Source: Candidatus Omnitrophota bacterium
GTDB taxonomy: Bacteria; Omnitrophota; Gorgyraeia; Duberdicusellales; 4484-171
NCBI GenBank assembly: GCA_016935525.1
Contig: JAFGQU010000005.1
Location: forward strand, 2,190-66,189
Direction: 5' to 3'
DNA length: 64,000 nucleotides
Below the pieces are notes generated by a model that had not been told where the DNA came from, did not search any database, and worked only from the letters and a program-made list of their open reading frames with translations. Positions within the stretch are counted from its first letter, which is position 1, and each line of letters opens with the position of its first letter. Positions 3,135-64,000 of this stretch are shown one piece after another. The position numbers and the translations under genes are program-made.

Positions 3135-3593
3135 ATGAAGAAAACGATTTTGTTTCTCATGCCCATACTTTTTGGCGCGATGACGGTAAGTGCCGAACCT
3201 ATAGTCAATTTCCAGCCGAAAAACTTTTTCCAGAAAAAACATGTCGGCCCTAAAAGTTCCGGTCCGCGCATGATCGAAGTCGAAGAAGAGGTCTGGTTTG
3301 CGTTGCATGAAGAGATCAATACCCTGCGGGATGAAGCCCTGCGCATGCAGACAAGATTAAAAGTCGCTGAAGCTGAAATCGCCCGTCTAAGAGAAAGCCA
3401 GTATGTCGAAGGCGGCGGTGCGGGAGCGACCACCTATCAGGTAAAAGAAGAAGATAGCTTATGGAAGATCGCTAAAAAGTATTATAAAGACCCGTTTAAA
3501 TGGTTATGGTTGTTTAAAGCCAATATTGCTCAATTGGACGACCCCGATAAAATTTATCCCGGACAAATCCTGGATATCCCGAGGTACGAATGA
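3135..3593 (+). CDS. Secreted LysM-domain protein
   Basis: Signal peptide MKKTILFLMPILFGAMTVSA. C-terminal LysM (YQVKEEDSLWKIAKKYY...IYPGQILDIP). The ORF track starts at 3096; an internal ATG after an RBS is preferred. Confidence 0.5.
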   Translation: MKKTILFLMPILFGAMTVSAEPIVNFQPKNFFQKKHVGPKSSGPRMIEVEEEVWFALHEEINTLRDEALRMQTRLKVAEAEIARLRESQYVEGGGAGATTYQVKEEDSLWKIAKKYYKDPFKWLWLFKANIAQLDDPDKIYPGQILDIPRYE

Positions 3594-7700: not shown

Positions 7701-7760
7701 ACCAGGTAATTTACAATCAATGAGTTCCGTAAATTACGGTCTCATTGAAGGAGGTAGAAA

Positions 7761-8078
7761 GTGGTACATAACATAGATCTATATTCCTCTTCCCTTAAAG
7801 ATATCTATACTCAGGCCCGGGCCGATATGGTCAAACAAAGTCGGGGCGAGGCCGATTCTAATGCTTCGTTTATGGATTTTCTCCAGGGGGCGCTTGACCG
7901 CGTCAACTCCAATTTTATCGAAGCCGATGATGCGATGAAAGGGTTTATGCTGGGTAAAGGCGAGCTTCATGAGGTGTTGATGTCTATACAGAAAGCGAAT
8001 TTAGAATTTCGGTTTGCGATGCAGGTGCGTAATAAACTTATCGAGACCTATCAGGAAATCATGCGGATGCAGGTGTAA
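7761..8078 (+). CDS. fliE: Flagellar hook-basal body complex protein FliE
   Basis: 105 aa. Sits between flgC and fliF. C-terminal MQVRNKLIETYQEIMRMQV is typical of FliE. Confidence 0.75.
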   Translation: MVHNIDLYSSSLKDIYTQARADMVKQSRGEADSNASFMDFLQGALDRVNSNFIEADDAMKGFMLGKGELHEVLMSIQKANLEFRFAMQVRNKLIETYQEIMRMQV

Positions 8079-10780: not shown

Positions 10781-11620
10781 ATGAAAGTAATAAAAAAAGA
10801 TCAAACCTGGGGGACAATATCGGTAAAGCCTCATTCTTGGACTTTGTTCGCCGGCAATACGGCTAAAGAGGAGGCCGAAGAAAAAGAATTACTCTCGGTC
10901 CTGGAGAAAGTCGAAGAAGAGACTCATCAGGCGGTCATCGAACAGATGATCGAAGCCAAAAAGATCGAGCGTGAAGAAGTAGAGATCAAAAATAAAAAAG
11001 AAGAAATATTAGAGGTGACAAAACAACAGGCGCAGGCGCAGGCCGATGCGATCATCACTGAGGCAAAACAAAAAGCCGAAGCCGTAAAAGAAGAAGCTTT
11101 TCAAAAAGGGGTCGAAGGAGGCGCGATCGAAGCGGAAAAAAGAGCCGAAGAGAAATATAGCGGCCTTTTTTCTGAAGAGATAGCTAAGTTAAAGAACGTT
11201 GAAAAAGCATTAGAGTCTTCTTATCAGGAGATCGTCAAAAATACCGAGGATAAGGTCGTTAAGCTGGCGTTGGATATCGCCAAGAAAATAATCAAGGAAG
11301 ATTGTAAAAAGAAGAGCCCGCTAATAACTAAAATGGTTCGCGAAGGGCTCTCCCGGCTTTCGGAACGCGTGCCGGTGAAAATAAGGCTTAACCCGGAACA
11401 ACTTCCCTTAGTCGAAAAGAATAAAAAAAAGTTGATCGAGGAGTTTAATAACGCGCAGACGATCGAGTTGATAGCCGATGCGGGAGTGATTGCCGGAGGA
11501 TGTGTGCTTGAGACCGCATCAGGAAGTATCGACTTGAGGATCGACCGGCAATTCAATGAAATACAAAGAAATTTAACCGGAGAAACCAGAGAAAAAAATG
11601 AGTTTGAATCAGACGATTAA
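10781..11620 (+). CDS. fliH: Flagellar assembly protein FliH
   Basis: E/K-rich coiled-coil N-terminus and FliH C-domain. Lies between fliG and fliI. The ORF track's start at 10631 overlaps fliG; ATG 10781 directly follows the fliG stop. Confidence 0.7.
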   Translation: MKVIKKDQTWGTISVKPHSWTLFAGNTAKEEAEEKELLSVLEKVEEETHQAVIEQMIEAKKIEREEVEIKNKKEEILEVTKQQAQAQADAIITEAKQKAEAVKEEAFQKGVEGGAIEAEKRAEEKYSGLFSEEIAKLKNVEKALESSYQEIVKNTEDKVVKLALDIAKKIIKEDCKKKSPLITKMVREGLSRLSERVPVKIRLNPEQLPLVEKNKKKLIEEFNNAQTIELIADAGVIAGGCVLETASGSIDLRIDRQFNEIQRNLTGETREKNEFESDD

Positions 11621-12920
11621 TTTAGATAAATATTTTCAGGTGCTCGATTCAGTCGATCCGGTGAAACTGAACGGGAAAGTGACTAAAGTCGTGGGATTAG
11701 TAGTGGAATCCGACGGCCCGGCAGTAGGGATCGGCGAACTTTGTTTTATTTATCCGAGAAAACGATCCCGGCCGGTCCGGGCCGAAGTCGTCGGATTTAG
11801 AGATAATAAAGTATTGCTTATGCCGTTGGGCGAGATGATCCAGATCGAACCGAACAGTGAAGTAGTCGCTTCCGGAGAATGTCTGGGGATACACGTATCT
11901 TCGGAATTATTAGGAAGGGTGTTAGACGGACTGGGGAATCCTCTGGACGGGAAACCCCAGGTGATCAGTAACGAACATTATTGTGTGACAAAAACACCGC
12001 CGCATCCGCTTACGCGTCAGAGGATAAAACGGCCGTTACCTACGGGAGTGCGGGCTGTTGACGGGACGTTGACTCTGGGTGAAGGACAACGTATCGGTAT
12101 TTTTTCGGGAAGCGGTATCGGTAAAAGCGTATTGTTAGGAATGATCGCCCGGTATACCAGCGCGGACGTGAATGTCATCGCTCTCATCGGAGAACGGGGC
12201 CGCGAGGTGCGGGATTTTATCGAAAAAGATCTGGGGCCGGATGGGCTTAAGCGTTCGGTGATCGTGGTGTCTACTTCGGACCAGCCGGCGTTGATCCGGA
12301 TCAAAGGAGCAGAAATCGCAACTGCTATCGCCGAATATTTCCGTGCTCAGGGGCTTAATGTGATGTTTATGATGGATTCGGTCACCCGGTTTGCGATGGC
12401 CCAGAGAGAAGTCGGCCTTGCGATCGGAGAGCCGCCGGCGACAAAAGGATATACTCCTTCGGTGTTTGCGATGTTGCCTAAACTTTTAGAACGAAGCGGG
12501 GCGTCACATACCGGAAGTATTACCGGTATTTATACCGTGCTGGTCGAAGCCGATGACATGAATGAACCGGTCGCCGATACTGTCCGCAGTATTCTTGACG
12601 GCCACATCGTGTTGTCGCGGGAGCTGGCTTCCGCCGGACATTATCCGCCGATAGACGTGTTGCCCAGTATTTCGCGGTTGATGATCGATGTGGTCGATGA
12701 AGGTCATTATGAGTGCGCGAATAAACTAAGAGATATTTTAGTGACGTACCGCGACGCTCAGGATCTGATAAATATCGGAGCGTATGTCCATGGAAGTAAT
12801 CCTAAAATCGATTATGCTCTGGAAAAATTTGACGCGGTCAACGCATTTTTAAGACAAAAAATAGAAGAGCCGGCAGATTTTTCCCAGACTATAGAAGGTT
12901 TAAAAAGCCTGTTTAATTAA
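11598..12920 (+). CDS. fliI: Flagellum-specific ATP synthase FliI
   Basis: Walker A GSGIGKSVLLGMIAR. F1-ATPase beta-like fold motifs. Confidence 0.9.
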   Translation: MSLNQTINLDKYFQVLDSVDPVKLNGKVTKVVGLVVESDGPAVGIGELCFIYPRKRSRPVRAEVVGFRDNKVLLMPLGEMIQIEPNSEVVASGECLGIHVSSELLGRVLDGLGNPLDGKPQVISNEHYCVTKTPPHPLTRQRIKRPLPTGVRAVDGTLTLGEGQRIGIFSGSGIGKSVLLGMIARYTSADVNVIALIGERGREVRDFIEKDLGPDGLKRSVIVVSTSDQPALIRIKGAEIATAIAEYFRAQGLNVMFMMDSVTRFAMAQREVGLAIGEPPATKGYTPSVFAMLPKLLERSGASHTGSITGIYTVLVEADDMNEPVADTVRSILDGHIVLSRELASAGHYPPIDVLPSISRLMIDVVDEGHYECANKLRDILVTYRDAQDLINIGAYVHGSNPKIDYALEKFDAVNAFLRQKIEEPADFSQTIEGLKSLFN

Positions 12921-27723: not shown

Positions 27724-28431
27724 ATGGGGTTTTTAGGTTTAACTACTAAAGAACGCAGTATATGGAATATGATCCAAAGTGGTGATAAAGTGCGGATAAG
27801 ACCCAAAGAAACAAAAGATAAAACCCATGGGAGTTTTGTTTCGCATATAGAAGCGGCGGCGCTCTATGTCAACACCCCGCTTGACGGAACGACTTATTTC
27901 GAGATCGCCCCCCGTACTCCGGTAGAGGTCGACATCGAAATCCTCGGTTATGGCGGAGGGCGGGTAGAATTTTCATCCCGGATCGTTTCTCAACAATGGG
28001 ACAAAAAACGGCTGACCAAGATCGCCTGTCCCCGGAAATTATCCTGGGTGCAGATGCGTCGGTACGTACGTATCGACGTGGTCGTTGATATCGAATTTTC
28101 TGTCGTCGATGCCAAGAAGCCTTCAAAGAACGTATCATTAGGATATCCCCGGTTTCAGGGGGTCACTAAGAATGTGTCTGAGGGGGGATTGATGCTTTTG
28201 GTTGCTAAATCTTCTCAGGTCGACGTGAACCAGCTGATCGACATGCAGGTAAAACTGGACCGCGATGATTCTTTTAAAGTGCGGGGAAAAATATTGCGTC
28301 AGATCGGATTACCCGTCCAGGATAAATATGTGTTAGGCGTCCAGTTTACGCATATTTCGGATGCGGATAAGGAAAAATTAAGACGGTTTATTTTTGAAAC
28401 AGGTAAAAAGAGGAATTTAAGAACAAGGTAA
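27724..28431 (+). CDS. PilZ-domain c-di-GMP receptor, YcgR/flagellar-brake-like (paralog 1 of 3)
   Basis: C-terminal PilZ motifs RRYVR (RxxxR) and NVSEGG (D/NxSxGG). N-terminal PilZN-like domain. Lies between flhG and fliA. Confidence 0.7.
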   Translation: MGFLGLTTKERSIWNMIQSGDKVRIRPKETKDKTHGSFVSHIEAAALYVNTPLDGTTYFEIAPRTPVEVDIEILGYGGGRVEFSSRIVSQQWDKKRLTKIACPRKLSWVQMRRYVRIDVVVDIEFSVVDAKKPSKNVSLGYPRFQGVTKNVSEGGLMLLVAKSSQVDVNQLIDMQVKLDRDDSFKVRGKILRQIGLPVQDKYVLGVQFTHISDADKEKLRRFIFETGKKRNLRTR

Positions 28432-28437
28432 GGTGGT

Positions 28438-29154
28438 ATGGGTATTTTTGGATTGAGCTTTAAAGAGAAAAAGGTATGGAATAGTATTGCTCCCGCAAAT
28501 AAGATCTCTGTGCGTCTTAAAGAGAGCCCTCACGACGTATATCGTAGCAATGTGATCGAAGTGACGAAAAAAATTTTGATGATCAAAACCCCGATGTTAG
28601 GGATGGTATACCTGGAAATAATGCCCAACACAGTCGCGATGCTGGAAGTCGAGATATTAAACCCTCTCAACGGCCGTATTTTCTTCTCATCAAAGATCAT
28701 TTCTCAGGAATGGATGAAAGAAAGAACTACCAGGATTGCTGTTCCCCGTTCGATAAAATGGGTCCAGCTGCGCAGGTGTTTTCGTCTGGAGATCGTATTG
28801 GATTGCGAATACGCCTTAACCGGTGCCCGGTCGCCGAAAGATAAATTTGATCTGACTTCCCCGGTCCTGTTCGGGCTGGTAAGAAACATCTCTGAGCTCG
28901 GCGTTTTTTTGATTACGGAAAATATAATTAATATAGACGTGGGAACCCAGCTTAATCTGAAAGTAAATCTTGCTCCCGGTCTTCTTTTCCGCGGCCGGGG
29001 TAAAGTATTAAGGATAGAGAAAGTGGGAGATAAGTTCGGACTTGGCATAGAATTCCTTGCCACCCGGGAGAACGACCGGGAAATGTTGCGGAAATTTATT
29101 TTCAGTACGGACCGTAAATGGAATATCAGAACACAAGAACAAGAGGCGAAATAA
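28438..29154 (+). CDS. PilZ-domain protein, YcgR-like (paralog 2 of 3)
   Basis: LRRCFRLEI (RxxxR) and RNISELGVF: the canonical GG is replaced by LG. Same architecture as paralog 1. Confidence 0.65.
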   Translation: MGIFGLSFKEKKVWNSIAPANKISVRLKESPHDVYRSNVIEVTKKILMIKTPMLGMVYLEIMPNTVAMLEVEILNPLNGRIFFSSKIISQEWMKERTTRIAVPRSIKWVQLRRCFRLEIVLDCEYALTGARSPKDKFDLTSPVLFGLVRNISELGVFLITENIINIDVGTQLNLKVNLAPGLLFRGRGKVLRIEKVGDKFGLGIEFLATRENDREMLRKFIFSTDRKWNIRTQEQEAK

Positions 29155-29182
29155 ATAACGCAAAGAGAGGCGGTGAATTTTT

Positions 29183-29902
29183 ATGGGAATTTTTTGGTTG
29201 AATAGAACTGAACGAACTATATGGCGTTCAATACAGCCGAACGATATCGTTAAATTCATGTTACAGGATGATCCTCAGGAGATTTACGGTACGAAAGTGG
29301 TCCGGGTAAAAGACAAATCGATCACGGTCGTCACCCCTTTAATCGAAGGAGCTTACCTGGAACTTTTGCCCCAGACTCCCCTCCAGCTGGAATTGTATAC
29401 TTCCGTATTCGGTAAAATCCGCTTTATTTCTCATGTGCTGGGACAGGAATGGATTAAAGACCAGGTGCTCGAGATCTCCCGCCCCCGCCGGCTTACCCGG
29501 ATACAATTAAGACGTTATTATAGGATCGAGGCGGTATTAGAGGTAGATTACGTGGTCTTTTCATCTACCGGAGCGCATCTGCCGGGTGAGGCCCGGCAAT
29601 ATGCTCCTTATCGTGCCGTAACGAAAAACATCTCGGAAACCGGAATGATGTTCGTCGGCGACCACAGTTTGAATAAGGGCGATTATATTGATATGAAGAT
29701 CAAAGTGACGTATCCGCCGGAAAGCCAGTTGGATTCCGAAGAAGTGAAAGCTCGCGGGAGGATTGTCCGGTGTACTCAGATCGAAGTCGGTAGCCGTTAC
29801 GCGGTAGCAATAGAGATAGGTAAGATCGATGCAGAGAATCAGGAAAGGTTGAGAAGATATATCTTCCATAAGGGAAGAGATCTCTACTCGCGTACCAAAT
29901 GA
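29183..29902 (+). CDS. PilZ-domain protein, YcgR-like (paralog 3 of 3)
   Basis: LRRYYRIEA (RxxxR) and KNISETGMMF: GG replaced by TG. Same length and N-terminal MGIFxL motif as the other paralogs. Confidence 0.65.
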   Translation: MGIFWLNRTERTIWRSIQPNDIVKFMLQDDPQEIYGTKVVRVKDKSITVVTPLIEGAYLELLPQTPLQLELYTSVFGKIRFISHVLGQEWIKDQVLEISRPRRLTRIQLRRYYRIEAVLEVDYVVFSSTGAHLPGEARQYAPYRAVTKNISETGMMFVGDHSLNKGDYIDMKIKVTYPPESQLDSEEVKARGRIVRCTQIEVGSRYAVAIEIGKIDAENQERLRRYIFHKGRDLYSRTK

Positions 29903-55552: not shown

Positions 55553-55580
55553 TAAAGTTTCTTTGAAAAGTGGTCGATAA
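55553..55580 (+). promoter_or_regulatory. Sigma-28 promoter upstream of csrA-flagellin
   Basis: TAAAGTTT (55553-55560), 12-nt spacer, GTCGATAA (55573-55580). csrA ATG at 55605. Confidence 0.7.
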
Positions 55581-55604
55581 TAATATTGGAGCCAAGGAGG
55601 GGCT

Positions 55605-55877
55605 ATGCTGGTACTGACAAGGAAGTTAGATGAATCGATTATTATTGGCGAGAACATTGAAATCAAGGTCCTAGAAGTAAGAGGGGAACAGGTCCGGTTA
55701 GGGATTGTTGCCCCCAGAAGCATCAGTGTTCACCGTAAAGAGCTCTATGATAAAATAAAGAGTATTAATGTCGAGTCGGTAAAAACCAAGACCGACAAAA
55801 TAACCGTTCCCTTTAAATCCAAGGAAGGAGGTGAACAGAAGCCAGATTCAACACAAAACGGGGAACATGCAGAATAG
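55605..55877 (+). CDS. csrA: Carbon storage regulator CsrA (flagellin translational repressor)
   Basis: [48 protein letters not shown] is canonical CsrA. Confidence 0.9.
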
Positions 55878-55919
55878 ATTGACAAGGATGTAGTCAGAGA
55901 AACACACAAGGAGGTAAAA

Positions 55920-61718: not shown

Positions 61719-62651
61719 ATGAAAAAAACATTGGTTTTCTTAGGAATTCTTACCTGTATTTTTTTCTTTACCCGCAATGGGTCCGGTCAGGCGCCTGAAG
61801 AATCGGCACATACCGCAGGAGTAGGGCTTTCAGTCATGCCGGGAGAGATGGTCGTCCAGAACATTGTTCCCGGTGAACCGTTTGATTTAGGCGAAAAAGC
61901 CGATATCGGGCTTATCGTCCGTAACCAATCCGATAAAACCCGTTCTTATAAGATCGCCGTGACTCAACCCAGCCAATTACGGCTAAAAAATGTAAAAGGA
62001 TATTCGGTATTACCGGACCCCTCATGGCTACAGTTGGAAAAAGATACTATTGAGGTCGGCCCGTTTTCTCAAGGTACCGTAAAGATGGTCATACACGTAC
62101 CCGATGACCCGCAGTATTTTAACCAGAAATGGGCTGTTGCCCTTTCGGTGACGTCGGTCCCCAAAGCCAACGAAAAAATCAATCTGCGGGTCACGCCGGT
62201 TTATTATATCGAGACCGTAGCTAATAGCGAAATTTTAACTCCTCCGGCCGGCCGGTTGGGGGTAAGTCCCGGGGCAATAAATTTAGGCATTATCACTCTT
62301 GGTGAACATAAAGATGTCGCGAAAATAAAAATCTATAATAACGACACTAAAGCTCATGTATACAGTATTTCTCCCTTTGTCCCGACTCAAGAGAGCGGTT
62401 CACGAAAGATCATCGTTTCACCGAATTATTTCTGGATCTATGAGAAAGAATGGATCAGCGCGCAAGTCCCTAAGGTAAAAATAGGCCCGAAGAAATCGAA
62501 AGAAATAGCGATTAATCTTACTATTCCGGATGTCCCGGTATATGTGAAAAAGCTCTTTGAAGGTCTTATTTTTATTGAAGCTCTTGACGATGAAACGCTT
62601 TCAGATTTCGTACGGGTGAAGATGAACACCCGTAAGAAACCGAAAGAATAA
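61719..62651 (+). CDS. Secreted hypothetical protein
   Basis: Signal peptide MKKTLVFLGILTCIFFF. 310 aa. No motif recognised. Confidence 0.4.
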   Translation: MKKTLVFLGILTCIFFFTRNGSGQAPEESAHTAGVGLSVMPGEMVVQNIVPGEPFDLGEKADIGLIVRNQSDKTRSYKIAVTQPSQLRLKNVKGYSVLPDPSWLQLEKDTIEVGPFSQGTVKMVIHVPDDPQYFNQKWAVALSVTSVPKANEKINLRVTPVYYIETVANSEILTPPAGRLGVSPGAINLGIITLGEHKDVAKIKIYNNDTKAHVYSISPFVPTQESGSRKIIVSPNYFWIYEKEWISAQVPKVKIGPKKSKEIAINLTIPDVPVYVKKLFEGLIFIEALDDETLSDFVRVKMNTRKKPKE

Positions 62652-62751
62652 ACAGCCGTGAATCCGGAAACGAATGCGAAAAAAATCCGTTGATTTTCAT
62701 AACTCATTGAAAATGAGCAAGTTATAAAAAGTAATTTTTTCGTGCTCGGGG

Positions 62752-62781
62752 TTGAAATGGTCTTTATCGATGTGGTATAAA
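62752..62781 (+). promoter_or_regulatory. Candidate sigma-70 promoter for the riboswitch transcript (TTGAAA-N18-TGnTATAAA)
   Basis: TTGAAA 62752-62757. Extended -10 tggTATAAA ending at 62781. An alternative TTGACA lies at 62807-62812. Confidence 0.4.
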
Positions 62782-62819
62782 TGTCATGTACACACGGGCT
62801 TAGTATTTGACAATTAGAA

Positions 62820-62980
62820 TCACGATAAAGGCAAACCCGCTGAAAGGCGGGGACGCAAAGCCTTGGGCCTAAAGGAAAAATCCTATGGTTGCCAGGTTAC
62901 CGAATGAACCTCAATATACGTTGAGGGGGAATCGAGTAATTATAACCCGCGCTATAGGAATATAGCGCGGGTTTTTTTTG
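62820..62980 (+). ncRNA. c-di-GMP-I (GEMM) riboswitch with intrinsic-terminator expression platform
   Basis: Aptamer GGCAAACC-cgct-GAAAG-gcgg-GGACGCAAAGCC-ttg-GGCCTAAA...GGTTGCCAGGTTACCGAATG closely parallels the Vc2 GEMM aptamer (GGCAAACC...GACGCAAAGCC...GGCCUAAA...GGUUACCGAUGG). The terminator is acccgcgctatagg-aa-tatagcgcggg plus T8 (62946-62979). Confidence 0.7.
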
Positions 62981-63001
62981 GCCTCTTTTGGGGCCGGTTT
63001 A

Positions 63002-63770
63002 GGGCTTGGGTAAGGAAAAATAATGATAATTCGTTCGCAGATTGTATGGTCAAGATGGGTCTCTCTTGGTGAGTGTATGGATGCTACACCGCACTGTGTT
63101 TCTTTATACAGTGCGGTTTTTTTATGTCTTCTTTTTGGGGTTGGGCCCTCAATAAGAAGAACTGTGAGCGTTTTATAGGGCTATAAAACGCTCACGATCA
63201 GGGTTTGGGTAAGGAAATATGTTTAGTTTTTTAAAATCACGCATACTCTATTCTTTTACGTCTTTTTTTGCACACCCTCTTTCTTTCATTTCCTGTTTCT
63301 TTACTCAAAACCCGAAACAAACAATAAGCACAGATAAAAGCCCTTCTTTTCCTCCAACATTTTCCTTACCCAAGCCCATACATATACAGAACGCCCTGAT
63401 TTCAACAATCTGTATATGTTGTTTTATTCTGATGTTTTCCTTACCTAAGCCCACGTACACACAGGCATTGCCCAGTATGTATTCCTCTTATTTTAAAAGA
63501 GGGGCTTGTGTGTACTGTTTTCCTCAGTTTTCCTTACCTAAGCCCAAGCACGTGCAGTTGGTATCGATCATCTGCGCGTGCGGTCTTTTTATGTTTTCCT
63601 TACCTAAGCCTGAGCGTATTCTACCGGCAGTGGCGAGTCTTGCGTTGTATTGTCTCCTTTTCGCGGTTGTCGCTGCTGCCGGCTTTATATGCTTTAGACG
63701 CGAGAGTCTCTGTCGTGTGTGTACAGATGAAAAAGCCCGGATGATGAATGAATATTCTTTACCCAAACCC
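63002..63770. repeat. Array of an 18-bp motif (GGGCTTGGGTAAGGAAAA / TTTTCCTTACCYAAGCCC) in both orientations, each flanked by a hairpin
   Basis: Copies: 63002-63019 and 63201-63218 (GGG...AAA orientation). 63360-63377, 63435-63452, 63528-63545, 63594-63610 and degenerate 63755-63770 (TTT...CCC orientation). Each copy is followed within 0-7 nt by a 10-12 bp stem hairpin of unique sequence. A + strand terminator sits at 63088-63124. Confidence 0.7.
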
Positions 63771-63863
63771 AAAAGTTTTGAGGAGGTGTATATGAGGGAA
63801 AATAATAATAGGGGAATACAAAATACGAACATAATGGTAATCAATAAAAAAGGAGGTTATGCC

Positions 63864-64000
63864 ATGAAGTTCAAAATATTAGGAGTGGTGTTCGTTGGAT
63901 TAGCGATGCTCTTTGGCGTCACGAGTAATGCCTGGGCGTTAGCGTCAGAAGATATCGTATTGACGGTAACGATCCAGATATTGAGTGTCGACGTCGAAGA
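63864..64000 (+). CDS. Secreted protein, 5' partial in window (runs off the end)
   Basis: RBS aaaggagg, then ATG 63864. MKFKILGVVFVGLAMLFGVTSNAWA signal peptide. Confidence 0.45.
   Translation, partial: MKFKILGVVFVGLAMLFGVTSNAWALASEDIVLTVTIQILSVDVE

Follow-up and report, generated by a model that had tools for sequence, protein, structure and literature searches.

In the 64,000-nt stretch of Candidatus Omnitrophota contig JAFGQU010000005.1 analysed here (the window, to which all unprefixed coordinates refer, on the + strand unless stated), a class-I cyclic di-guanosine monophosphate (c-di-GMP) riboswitch of the GEMM-I type stands at the edge of a flagellar locus. We consider it likely that this is a functional aptamer with a promoter of its own, that it acts as an OFF switch at the head of an operon for secreted proteins, and that a second gate, dependent on translation, follows it in the same leader. 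The riboswitch itself is ordinary, one more member of a large and well-understood family; the long and presumably translated leader behind it is unusual and undescribed. Four distinct orthologous lineages were compared, namely the window and the loci L002, L048 and L049. L050 has the same sequence as L049, L048 has close relatives in L051 and L052, and L001, a Logan contig, is identical to the window across 7,430 nt; five independent assemblies are represented (window/L001, L002, L048, L052/L051 and L049/L050).

A class-I c-di-GMP aptamer beside the flagellar genes

The window aptamer is almost certainly a genuine class-I c-di-GMP riboswitch, to judge from its sequence. When the whole window was scanned with all Rfam families, RF01051 (c-di-GMP-I) matched 62820-62904 on the + strand with 88.9 bits (gathering threshold 35; E 2.7e-16), over model positions 1-87 of 87, and this was the only hit above gathering in the 64 kb. 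The first-pass annotation, made from the letters alone, had recognised a GEMM-I riboswitch by its sequence blocks at 62829-62906 and had proposed a cmsearch comparison with RF01051 as a check; all of the blocks are found on direct reading, and the significant full-length match, far over the threshold, bears the assignment out. The aptamer is part of a 5' leader and is encoded on the coding strand; a promoter precedes it, a terminator (T1) follows it, and the downstream genes are on the same strand. The parts of the switch are as follows:

62752-62780, + strand: sigma-70-type promoter, -35 TTGAAA at 62752-62757, 17-nt spacer, extended -10 TGG-TATAAA at 62772-62780
62820-62904, + strand: c-di-GMP-I (GEMM-I) aptamer, P1a hairpin with GAAA tetraloop, P2 with CCUAAA/UAUGG receptor-like blocks
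62880-62900, + strand: predicted antiterminator strand AUCCUAUGGUUGCCAGGUUAC in the 3' half of the aptamer (P2 3' strand), complementary to 62942-62960, i.e. the 5' arm and loop of T1
62909-62928, + strand: linker hairpin CCUCAAU-AUAC-GUUGAGG between aptamer and T1, at the apex of the antiterminator
62944-62981, + strand: intrinsic terminator T1, 13-bp stem at 62944-62973, GGAA loop, T8, -22.2 kcal/mol

The equivalents of G20, A47 and C92, read from the Rfam alignment, are G, A and C in the window: a G ahead of GCAAA (AAAGGCAAAC), an A behind CGC and a C within UACCGA. We take the placement of A47, the intercalating base, and of C92 on this alignment partly from the Vc2 numbering. In that numbering, each guanine of c-di-GMP is read by one base, G-beta by C92 through Watson-Crick pairing and G-alpha by G20 through a Hoogsteen contact, and the GEMM-Ib RNAs that sense cyclic GMP-AMP (cGAMP) carry an A instead of G20 (PMC6140456). 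Since the window has a G at this position and not the A of GEMM-Ib, selectivity for c-di-GMP is to be expected; the aptamer would bind this nucleotide, and we expect it to be the preferred ligand.

The fold is corroborated by the orthologues. Among the four aptamers, 95% of the pair cells are canonical (a measure of modest power with four sequences only), compensatory double changes occur at 4 P1a pairs, and the covariation score was reached by 0 of 500 shuffles; when the partners were slid by 1-3 columns as a control, pairing fell to 23-49%. A P1/P2 fold inconsistent with covariation, which the first-pass annotation had named as a reason to abandon the riboswitch, is not what was found: the P1a and P2 helices covary in the four orthologues. 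The three further matches to RF01051, each from a distinct Omnitrophota lineage, occupy the same syntenic site, 3' of fliS and 5' of a cluster for secreted or surface proteins:

L002, 7576-7660: orthologous aptamer, 69 bits
L048, 10580-10668: orthologous aptamer, 76.7 bits
L049 (= L050), 11590-11724: orthologous aptamer, 51.1 bits, carrying a 68-nt two-hairpin insertion

Aptamer and T1 are identical between L048 and L052 (0/151 differences). At the position of G20 (window 62830 = L002 7586 = L048 10590 = L052 about 2178), G is found in the window and in L049, and A in L002 (AAUAGCAAAC) and in L048 and L052 (AAGAGCAAAC). It may be that ligand specificity differs between sister lineages at one locus, with cGAMP or both ligands being recognised. 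As an observation apart, the insertion of L049 (11606-11673, and likewise in L050) puts 68 nt in the place of the usual 19 model positions, the match still reaching 51 bits; inspected by eye, these nucleotides seem to form the P1a hairpin and, ahead of the closing GC pair, two additional hairpins. More remotely, a metagenome-assembled genome of an unclassified phylum (L010) has two aptamers of the GEMM clan, at 3495-3572 and 12439-12515, whose best models are the variants RF03168 (UAU) and RF03167 (GGC). They flank a cluster in which the 310-aa fn3_5-like protein next to the window riboswitch has a distant relative, and the platform of the first aptamer, which precedes a gene for a secreted protein, is clearly of the ON type, the terminator 5' arm sharing the 3' strand of the aptamer.

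Promoter, terminator and predicted sign of the switch

The promoter called plausible by the first-pass annotation can be read as TTGAAA, 17 nt and TGG-TATAAA, and its TGGTAT core is invariant in an alignment of the four orthologous upstream regions; the predicted start of transcription is at about 62787-62789. A simple promoter scan missed it because the scan accepts only -10 hexamers that end in T. The intrinsic terminator that had been placed at 62946-62979 is real, with a perfect 13-bp stem followed by T8. In these respects the earlier picture stands: the riboswitch borders the flagellar locus and is equipped with a promoter and a terminator. That picture made no prediction of the sign of regulation, for which we propose OFF.

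The switch is most likely a transcriptional OFF switch, acting by termination at T1. The 3' strand of the aptamer is complementary to the 5' arm of the terminator and not shared with it, which is the geometry of an OFF switch. The antiterminator duplex has -18.5 kcal/mol in the window, a value equalled by 0.2-0.3% of shuffled arms (p 0.003), and such complementarity is significant in 3 of the 4 lineages, each with a different sequence (L002, -17.6 kcal/mol, p 0.02; L049, -18.8 kcal/mol, p 0.026). In the nascent transcript up to 62960, the minimum free energy (MFE) structure pairs 62880-62900 with 62942-62960, and enforcing the aptamer abolishes this helix at a cost of 4.8 kcal/mol; in L002, the corresponding nascent folds differ by 7.1 kcal/mol. 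A small hairpin at the position of the linker hairpin was also seen by eye in L048 and L049. A class-I OFF switch that terminates transcription ahead of motility genes has a precedent in Cd1 of C. difficile (PMC6366702).

We propose that the sigma-70 promoter at 62752-62780 transcribes the aptamer at the head of the leader of the secreted-protein operon. In the absence of ligand, 62880-62900 would pair with the 5' arm of T1 (62942-62960) and the polymerase would read through; with c-di-GMP bound, the strand would be kept within the aptamer, T1 (62944-62981) would form and transcription would end. The secreted-protein operon would be expressed alongside the motility genes at low c-di-GMP.

Several points weigh against this sign. 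The duplex of L048 is weak (-11.2 kcal/mol, p 0.28), yet its nascent-transcript MFE structure does use the pairing, and the nascent MFE structure of L049 is without the antiterminator helix. In the full-length leader of the window, T1 (-22.2 kcal/mol) is more stable than the antiterminator (-18.5 kcal/mol) and forms in the equilibrium MFE structure with or without the aptamer constraint; since T1 is the more stable structure either way, read-through would have to be kinetic. Moreover, c-di-GMP commonly promotes adhesion, and turning surface or adhesin-like genes OFF would depart from this pattern. Finally, the sign of class-I switches must be settled case by case, with no extrapolation between species (PMC6366702).

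The equilibrium folds would also suit a real aptamer followed by a constitutive T1, in which case the RNA of ~190 nt from promoter to T1 would be a stand-alone c-di-GMP sink or a trans-acting small RNA, and the operon would be transcribed from elsewhere. T1 is very strong, with its 13 bp and T8, and a further terminator, T2, lies only 110 nt beyond it; in Bdellovibrio, a massively expressed and terminated GEMM-I RNA has reportedly been proposed as a c-di-GMP sink. We nevertheless regard this arrangement as improbable: complementarity between aptamer and T1 arm would be needless in four lineages with differing sequences, no promoter that is conserved could be recognised in the stretch from T1 to the first gene, and the whole leader is kept as a single block in front of the operon. 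Little weight is likewise given to an ON switch, in which c-di-GMP would promote read-through of T1 and induce the surface-protein operon. On the side of such a switch, c-di-GMP commonly induces adhesins, and the distant L010 aptamer ahead of a secreted-protein gene is of ON design; class-I ON examples exist, such as Bc2 of B. thuringiensis (PMC6366702). In the window, however, T1 lies 40 nt past the aptamer, has no strand in common with it and is complementary to it, a geometry that points to OFF.

A long open leader behind T1

Between T1 and the first gene, a motif of 14-18 nt (GGGCTTAGGTAAGGA; 18-nt form GGGCTTGGGTAAGGAAAA) occurs in two + copies, starting at 63002 and 63201, and in five inverted copies, starting at 63360, 63435, 63528, 63594 and 63753, and nowhere else in the window; 63002-63019 and 63360-63377 are perfect 18-nt inverted repeats. 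The leader is composed as follows:

63002-63019, + strand: first + copy of the motif (GGGCTTGGGTAAGGAAAA), with the Shine-Dalgarno (SD)-like TAAGGA inside, a small hairpin (62982-62997) before it and ATG 63023 after it
63023-63178, + strand: open reading frame (ORF) 1, 51 codons, traversing terminator T2
63088-63124, + strand: terminator T2, within ORF1, 12-bp stem, T7 tract, -19.4 kcal/mol
63201-63218, + strand: second + copy of the motif (GGGTTTGGGTAAGGAAAT), with hairpins (63127-63160 and 63163-63196) before it; after its TAA, no further in-frame stop precedes the leader ORF
63219-63863, + strand: leader ORF, 215 stop-free codons opened by the ATG that follows the last + copy and sharing the frame of the first gene
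63360-63377, 63435-63452, 63528-63545, 63594-63611 and 63753-63770: inverted copies of the motif in the leader ORF, all in one frame, reading SLPKP
63380-63419, 63455-63515, 63548-63581 and 63624-63682, + strand: hairpins after inverted copies, -11 to -30 kcal/mol
63864-64000, + strand: start of the predicted first regulated gene, with SD AAGGAGGT, ATG and signal peptide MKFKILGVVFVGLAMLFGVTSNAWA, cut by the end of the window

The corresponding arrays of motif and leader extend over 63002-63863 in the window, 7762-8213 in L002, 10783-11115 in L048 and 11801-12357 in L049. In the leaders of L002, L048/L052 and L049, the 14-nt core GGCTTAGGTAAGGA recurs almost without change, and within 630 kb of fetched loci it is limited to these leaders, the ~5 near-matches with two mismatches being the number expected by chance. 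In all four lineages, the + copies lie 3' of a terminator and/or hairpin and are followed by an ATG after 1-6 nt. The unit of T2 and ORF1 is found in the window and in L002, where the equivalent of ORF1 (7778-7849) is closed by a stop codon situated where the 3' arm of T2 begins; L048 and L049 are without the unit.

The first-pass annotation had seen no long ORF for ~880 bp after the terminator. This does not hold, as the frame from ATG 63219 is stop-free past the gene start at 63864; the repeats of the "repeat array" described there are present, and the array, treated there as non-coding, sits inside the leader ORF. The window frame has 0 stops, against 9 and 15 in the other two frames and a shuffle mean of 11.8, and 0 of 20000 shuffles were stop-free (probability below 5e-5). 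The open frames of the other lineages, with the probability P(0) of a stop-free frame, are:

L002: leader ORF of 98 codons, P(0) 0.0018
L048: leader ORF of 105 codons, P(0) 0.0006
L049: leader ORF of 179 codons, P(0) 0.00005

The leader frame crosses 2-5 inverted copies of the motif and is stop-free in each lineage, and 11 of the 12 inverted copies share one frame, in which they read (S/T/L)L(P/S)(K/E)P. In the window and L002, the frame ends in fusion with the first gene, though the first genes differ; in L048 it stops 58 nt short of the gene, and in L049 it overlaps the start codon by 13 nt. Between L048 and L052, 8.5% of the positions of the leader ORF differ, including one in-frame 3-nt indel, with many amino-acid changes in the first half and a nearly invariant part holding the anti-motifs and hairpins. 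These differences indicate that the open frame is maintained and that the peptide sequence is weakly constrained. Inspection of the leader translations by eye gave no run of particular regulatory codons.

Every inverted copy but the last directly precedes a stable hairpin of variable sequence. U-rich tails follow most such hairpins in the window, L048 and L049, and the first three hairpins of the window array are in this way terminator-like on the + strand; two G-U wobble pairs in the window hairpins are possible on that strand only. When 62650-64000 was compared with Rfam at a permissive E-value, the repeat array matched no known RNA family, and what came up were weak chance hits resembling terminators.

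Pairing in the leader RNA and a possible second gate

When whole leaders were folded, + copies formed helices of 15-18 bp with inverted copies in the window, L002 and L049, and the + copy of L048 was not paired in this way; in the L048 and L049 folds, it is the SD and AUG of the first gene to which inverted copies pair. Some base changes are common to two partners, such as a C-to-T change in + copy 2 and inverted copy 5 of the window and a terminal T/A in + copy 1 and inverted copy 2 of L002. We infer that the motif is an SD-containing element and that its inverted copies are anti-SD elements. Its conservation beyond complementarity may reflect joint constraints from SD, pairing and frame, or a trans-acting factor. 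A separate observation concerns the hairpin loops. Those upstream of + copies often hold UUGGGC(U/A), at 62982-62997 and 63127-63160 in the window, 7725-7754 and 7865-7897 in L002, 10734-10759 in L048 and in the T1 loops of L002 and L049, and those after inverted copies often hold the complement GCCC(A/U)A, as in L048 (GGGCUAAU and AUUAGCCC). This complementarity suggests loop-loop contacts that could seed long-range pairing.

It can be hypothesised that these elements form a second gate on the read-through RNA, composed of the ribosome-binding motifs GGGCUUAGGUAAGGA at 63002 and 63201, the short ORF over T2, and the 215-codon leader ORF over five units of anti-motif and hairpin, three of them terminator-like. 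A ribosome that initiated before the anti-SD units were made would trail the polymerase and suppress the terminator hairpins within the ORF; pairing of motif and anti-motif (15-18 bp) at a later time would close the leader. A bolder version, possible but somewhat doubtful in our estimate, is that of an undescribed, lineage-conserved Omnitrophota leader in which the near-invariant 14-nt motif GGCUUAGGUAAGGA starts an ORF of 98-215 codons, whose translation would carry the polymerase through terminator-like units before pairing locked the leader; a trans-acting RNA or protein may read the motif, and the alternation of G20 and A20 may amount to a switch between c-di-GMP and 3',3'-cGAMP at one locus.

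Further considerations count against the proposal as a whole. The role given to leader translation is putative, and the near-invariance of the motif at ~50% protein identity hints at a trans-acting factor that lies outside the model. The genes said to be regulated offer little to reason from: the homologues of the first gene (P0001-P0004) are secreted proteins of ~212 aa, a family for which sequence searches of Pfam, NCBIfam and PDB returned nothing significant, and the AlphaFold model of the downstream secreted protein, built from four sequences, is unusable (pLDDT 34).

The perfect 18-nt inverted repeats, present in several copies and in both orientations, might alternatively be recombination sites of a phase-variable, invertible DNA switch, the orientation of the array setting expression; hairpins that are terminator-like on the + strand only would suit it, and the flgB leader of C. 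difficile reportedly combines the Cd1 riboswitch with an invertible flagellar switch. We consider inversion very unlikely here. The five assemblies agree in orientation, only in this one is the leader frame open, the reverse complement having 4-17 stops per frame, and the base changes specific to partners are equally explained by RNA pairing; no recombinase was seen beside the locus, the flanks of which are incomplete.

Binding of CsrA to the motif, as a CsrA site or sponge, is neither favoured nor disfavoured on balance. The motif contains AAGGA, and FliW and CsrA are encoded in the locus; on the other side, the canonical sites of the flagellin leaders (ACAAGGAUGU) differ from the motif, and the G-U wobbles of the hairpins favour a + strand RNA over a sponge transcribed from the minus strand. 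A multi-core precursor of ribosomally synthesised and post-translationally modified peptides, with FSLPKP repeated, is unlikely: the same motif is found in opposite orientation at ribosome-binding sites, the segments between repeats are kept as hairpins and not as peptides, and the N-terminal half gains non-synonymous changes between L048 and L052. A coding shufflon was rejected, as the minus strand of the array is without coding potential: each of its frames has 5-14 stops in the window and 4-17 when all four lineages are taken. An array of clustered regularly interspaced short palindromic repeats (CRISPR) was also dismissed, because the core has only 14-18 nt (against at least ~23), the spacing is irregular (75/93/66/159), both orientations occur and the "spacers" are hairpins.

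Flagellar neighbourhood and downstream genes

Upstream of the riboswitch and on the same strand are genes for FliW, CsrA, flagellin, FliD, a Maf-like protein and FliS. The neighbouring genes referred to here are:

27724-29902: three tandem paralogous YcgR-like proteins in the flagellar cluster, with PilZNR and PilZ domains, 235-239 aa
54981-55418: FliW, and 55606-55878: CsrA, directly upstream of flagellin (55920)
61719-62651: 310-aa fn3_5-like protein, adjoining the riboswitch (locus tag JXD21_02470)

The three PilZ receptors noted in the first-pass annotation exist, but the dense c-di-GMP control of downstream genes that it read from them does not follow: they lie 33 kb upstream and are presumably brakes of the flagellar motor, and are uninformative on the genes downstream of the riboswitch. 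The flagellin leader carries canonical CsrA sites, GACAAGGAUGUA and CACAAGGAGGU, the latter overlapping the SD, and the same sites are found in L002 at 1860-1895; a sigma-28-like promoter, TAAAGTTT-N12-GTCGATAA, lies ahead of csrA at about 55553-55581.

With regard to the start of the first gene, an internal SD, GAGGAGG (63778-63794), and ATG 63792 stand in the leader frame 24 codons before ATG 63864, so that the true start is ambiguous; the gene caller picked 63744 on L001. What follows can be read further in L002, where the locus encodes several paralogues of the ~212-aa proteins, two Ig/fn3-like proteins of 300 aa and an adhesin-like protein that exceeds 3,747 aa and contains CLIPPER and SdrD_B domains; from these predicted products, the cluster of L002 is a cell-surface module.

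The wider searches added little to this set. The 310-aa protein, used as a query of genome contigs, gave no match, and the alignment of its family recovered only distant relatives (21-32% identity) from other phyla, L010 among them, none with the motif. P0006, which is 85% identical to the 310-aa neighbour, is on a contig that ends before the position of the aptamer. A metagenome scan with the secreted-protein family returned six short contigs only, all without leader sequence.

Significance and comparison with known systems

In Omnitrophota, a phylum that lacks cultured models, the locus provides a direct cis link from c-di-GMP to a cluster for secreted proteins. The predicted OFF sign, if true, would place the secreted proteins in the motile and not in the sessile programme, and the leader, if confirmed, would be a case of riboswitch control stacked on translation-coupled antitermination.

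One close likeness is to Cd1 (Cdi-1-3) of C. difficile, where the flgB leader is likewise a long 5' leader joined physically to flagellar genes; it too carries a class-I aptamer and, between this riboswitch and the first gene, a second regulatory module. There, this module is an invertible DNA switch and early flagellar genes follow; here, it is a putatively translated leader ORF with SD/anti-SD repeats, and the genes are those of secreted proteins 3' of late flagellar genes, in Omnitrophota. The proposed OFF logic through an intrinsic terminator is also that of Cd1, whose terminated product accumulates at high c-di-GMP (PMC6366702). Vc2 of Vibrio cholerae, the structural reference of RF01051, has the same blocks (GGCAAAC, GAAA tetraloop, GACGCAAAGCC, CCUAA...UAUGG and UACCGA) and the same G20, A47 and C92 equivalents; unlike it, the window riboswitch carries a classic terminator/antiterminator platform, and neither class-I riboswitch of V. 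cholerae controls transcription termination (PMC6366702). The GEMM-Ib riboswitches for 3',3'-cGAMP, such as Gs1761 of Geobacter, share the fold and the Rfam clan, and their A20 is found in the orthologues of L002 and L048/L052, whereas the window copy has G20. Lastly, the leader resembles the trp/his/leu attenuators and the ermC-type leaders in that ORF1 overlaps T2 and SDs would be masked by complementary downstream segments, the position of the ribosome being what would set the folding. It differs from them in the great length of its ORF (98-215 codons), in its several anti-SD repeats and hairpins, in an ORF that reaches the first gene or is fused with it in frame, and in its place behind a riboswitch.

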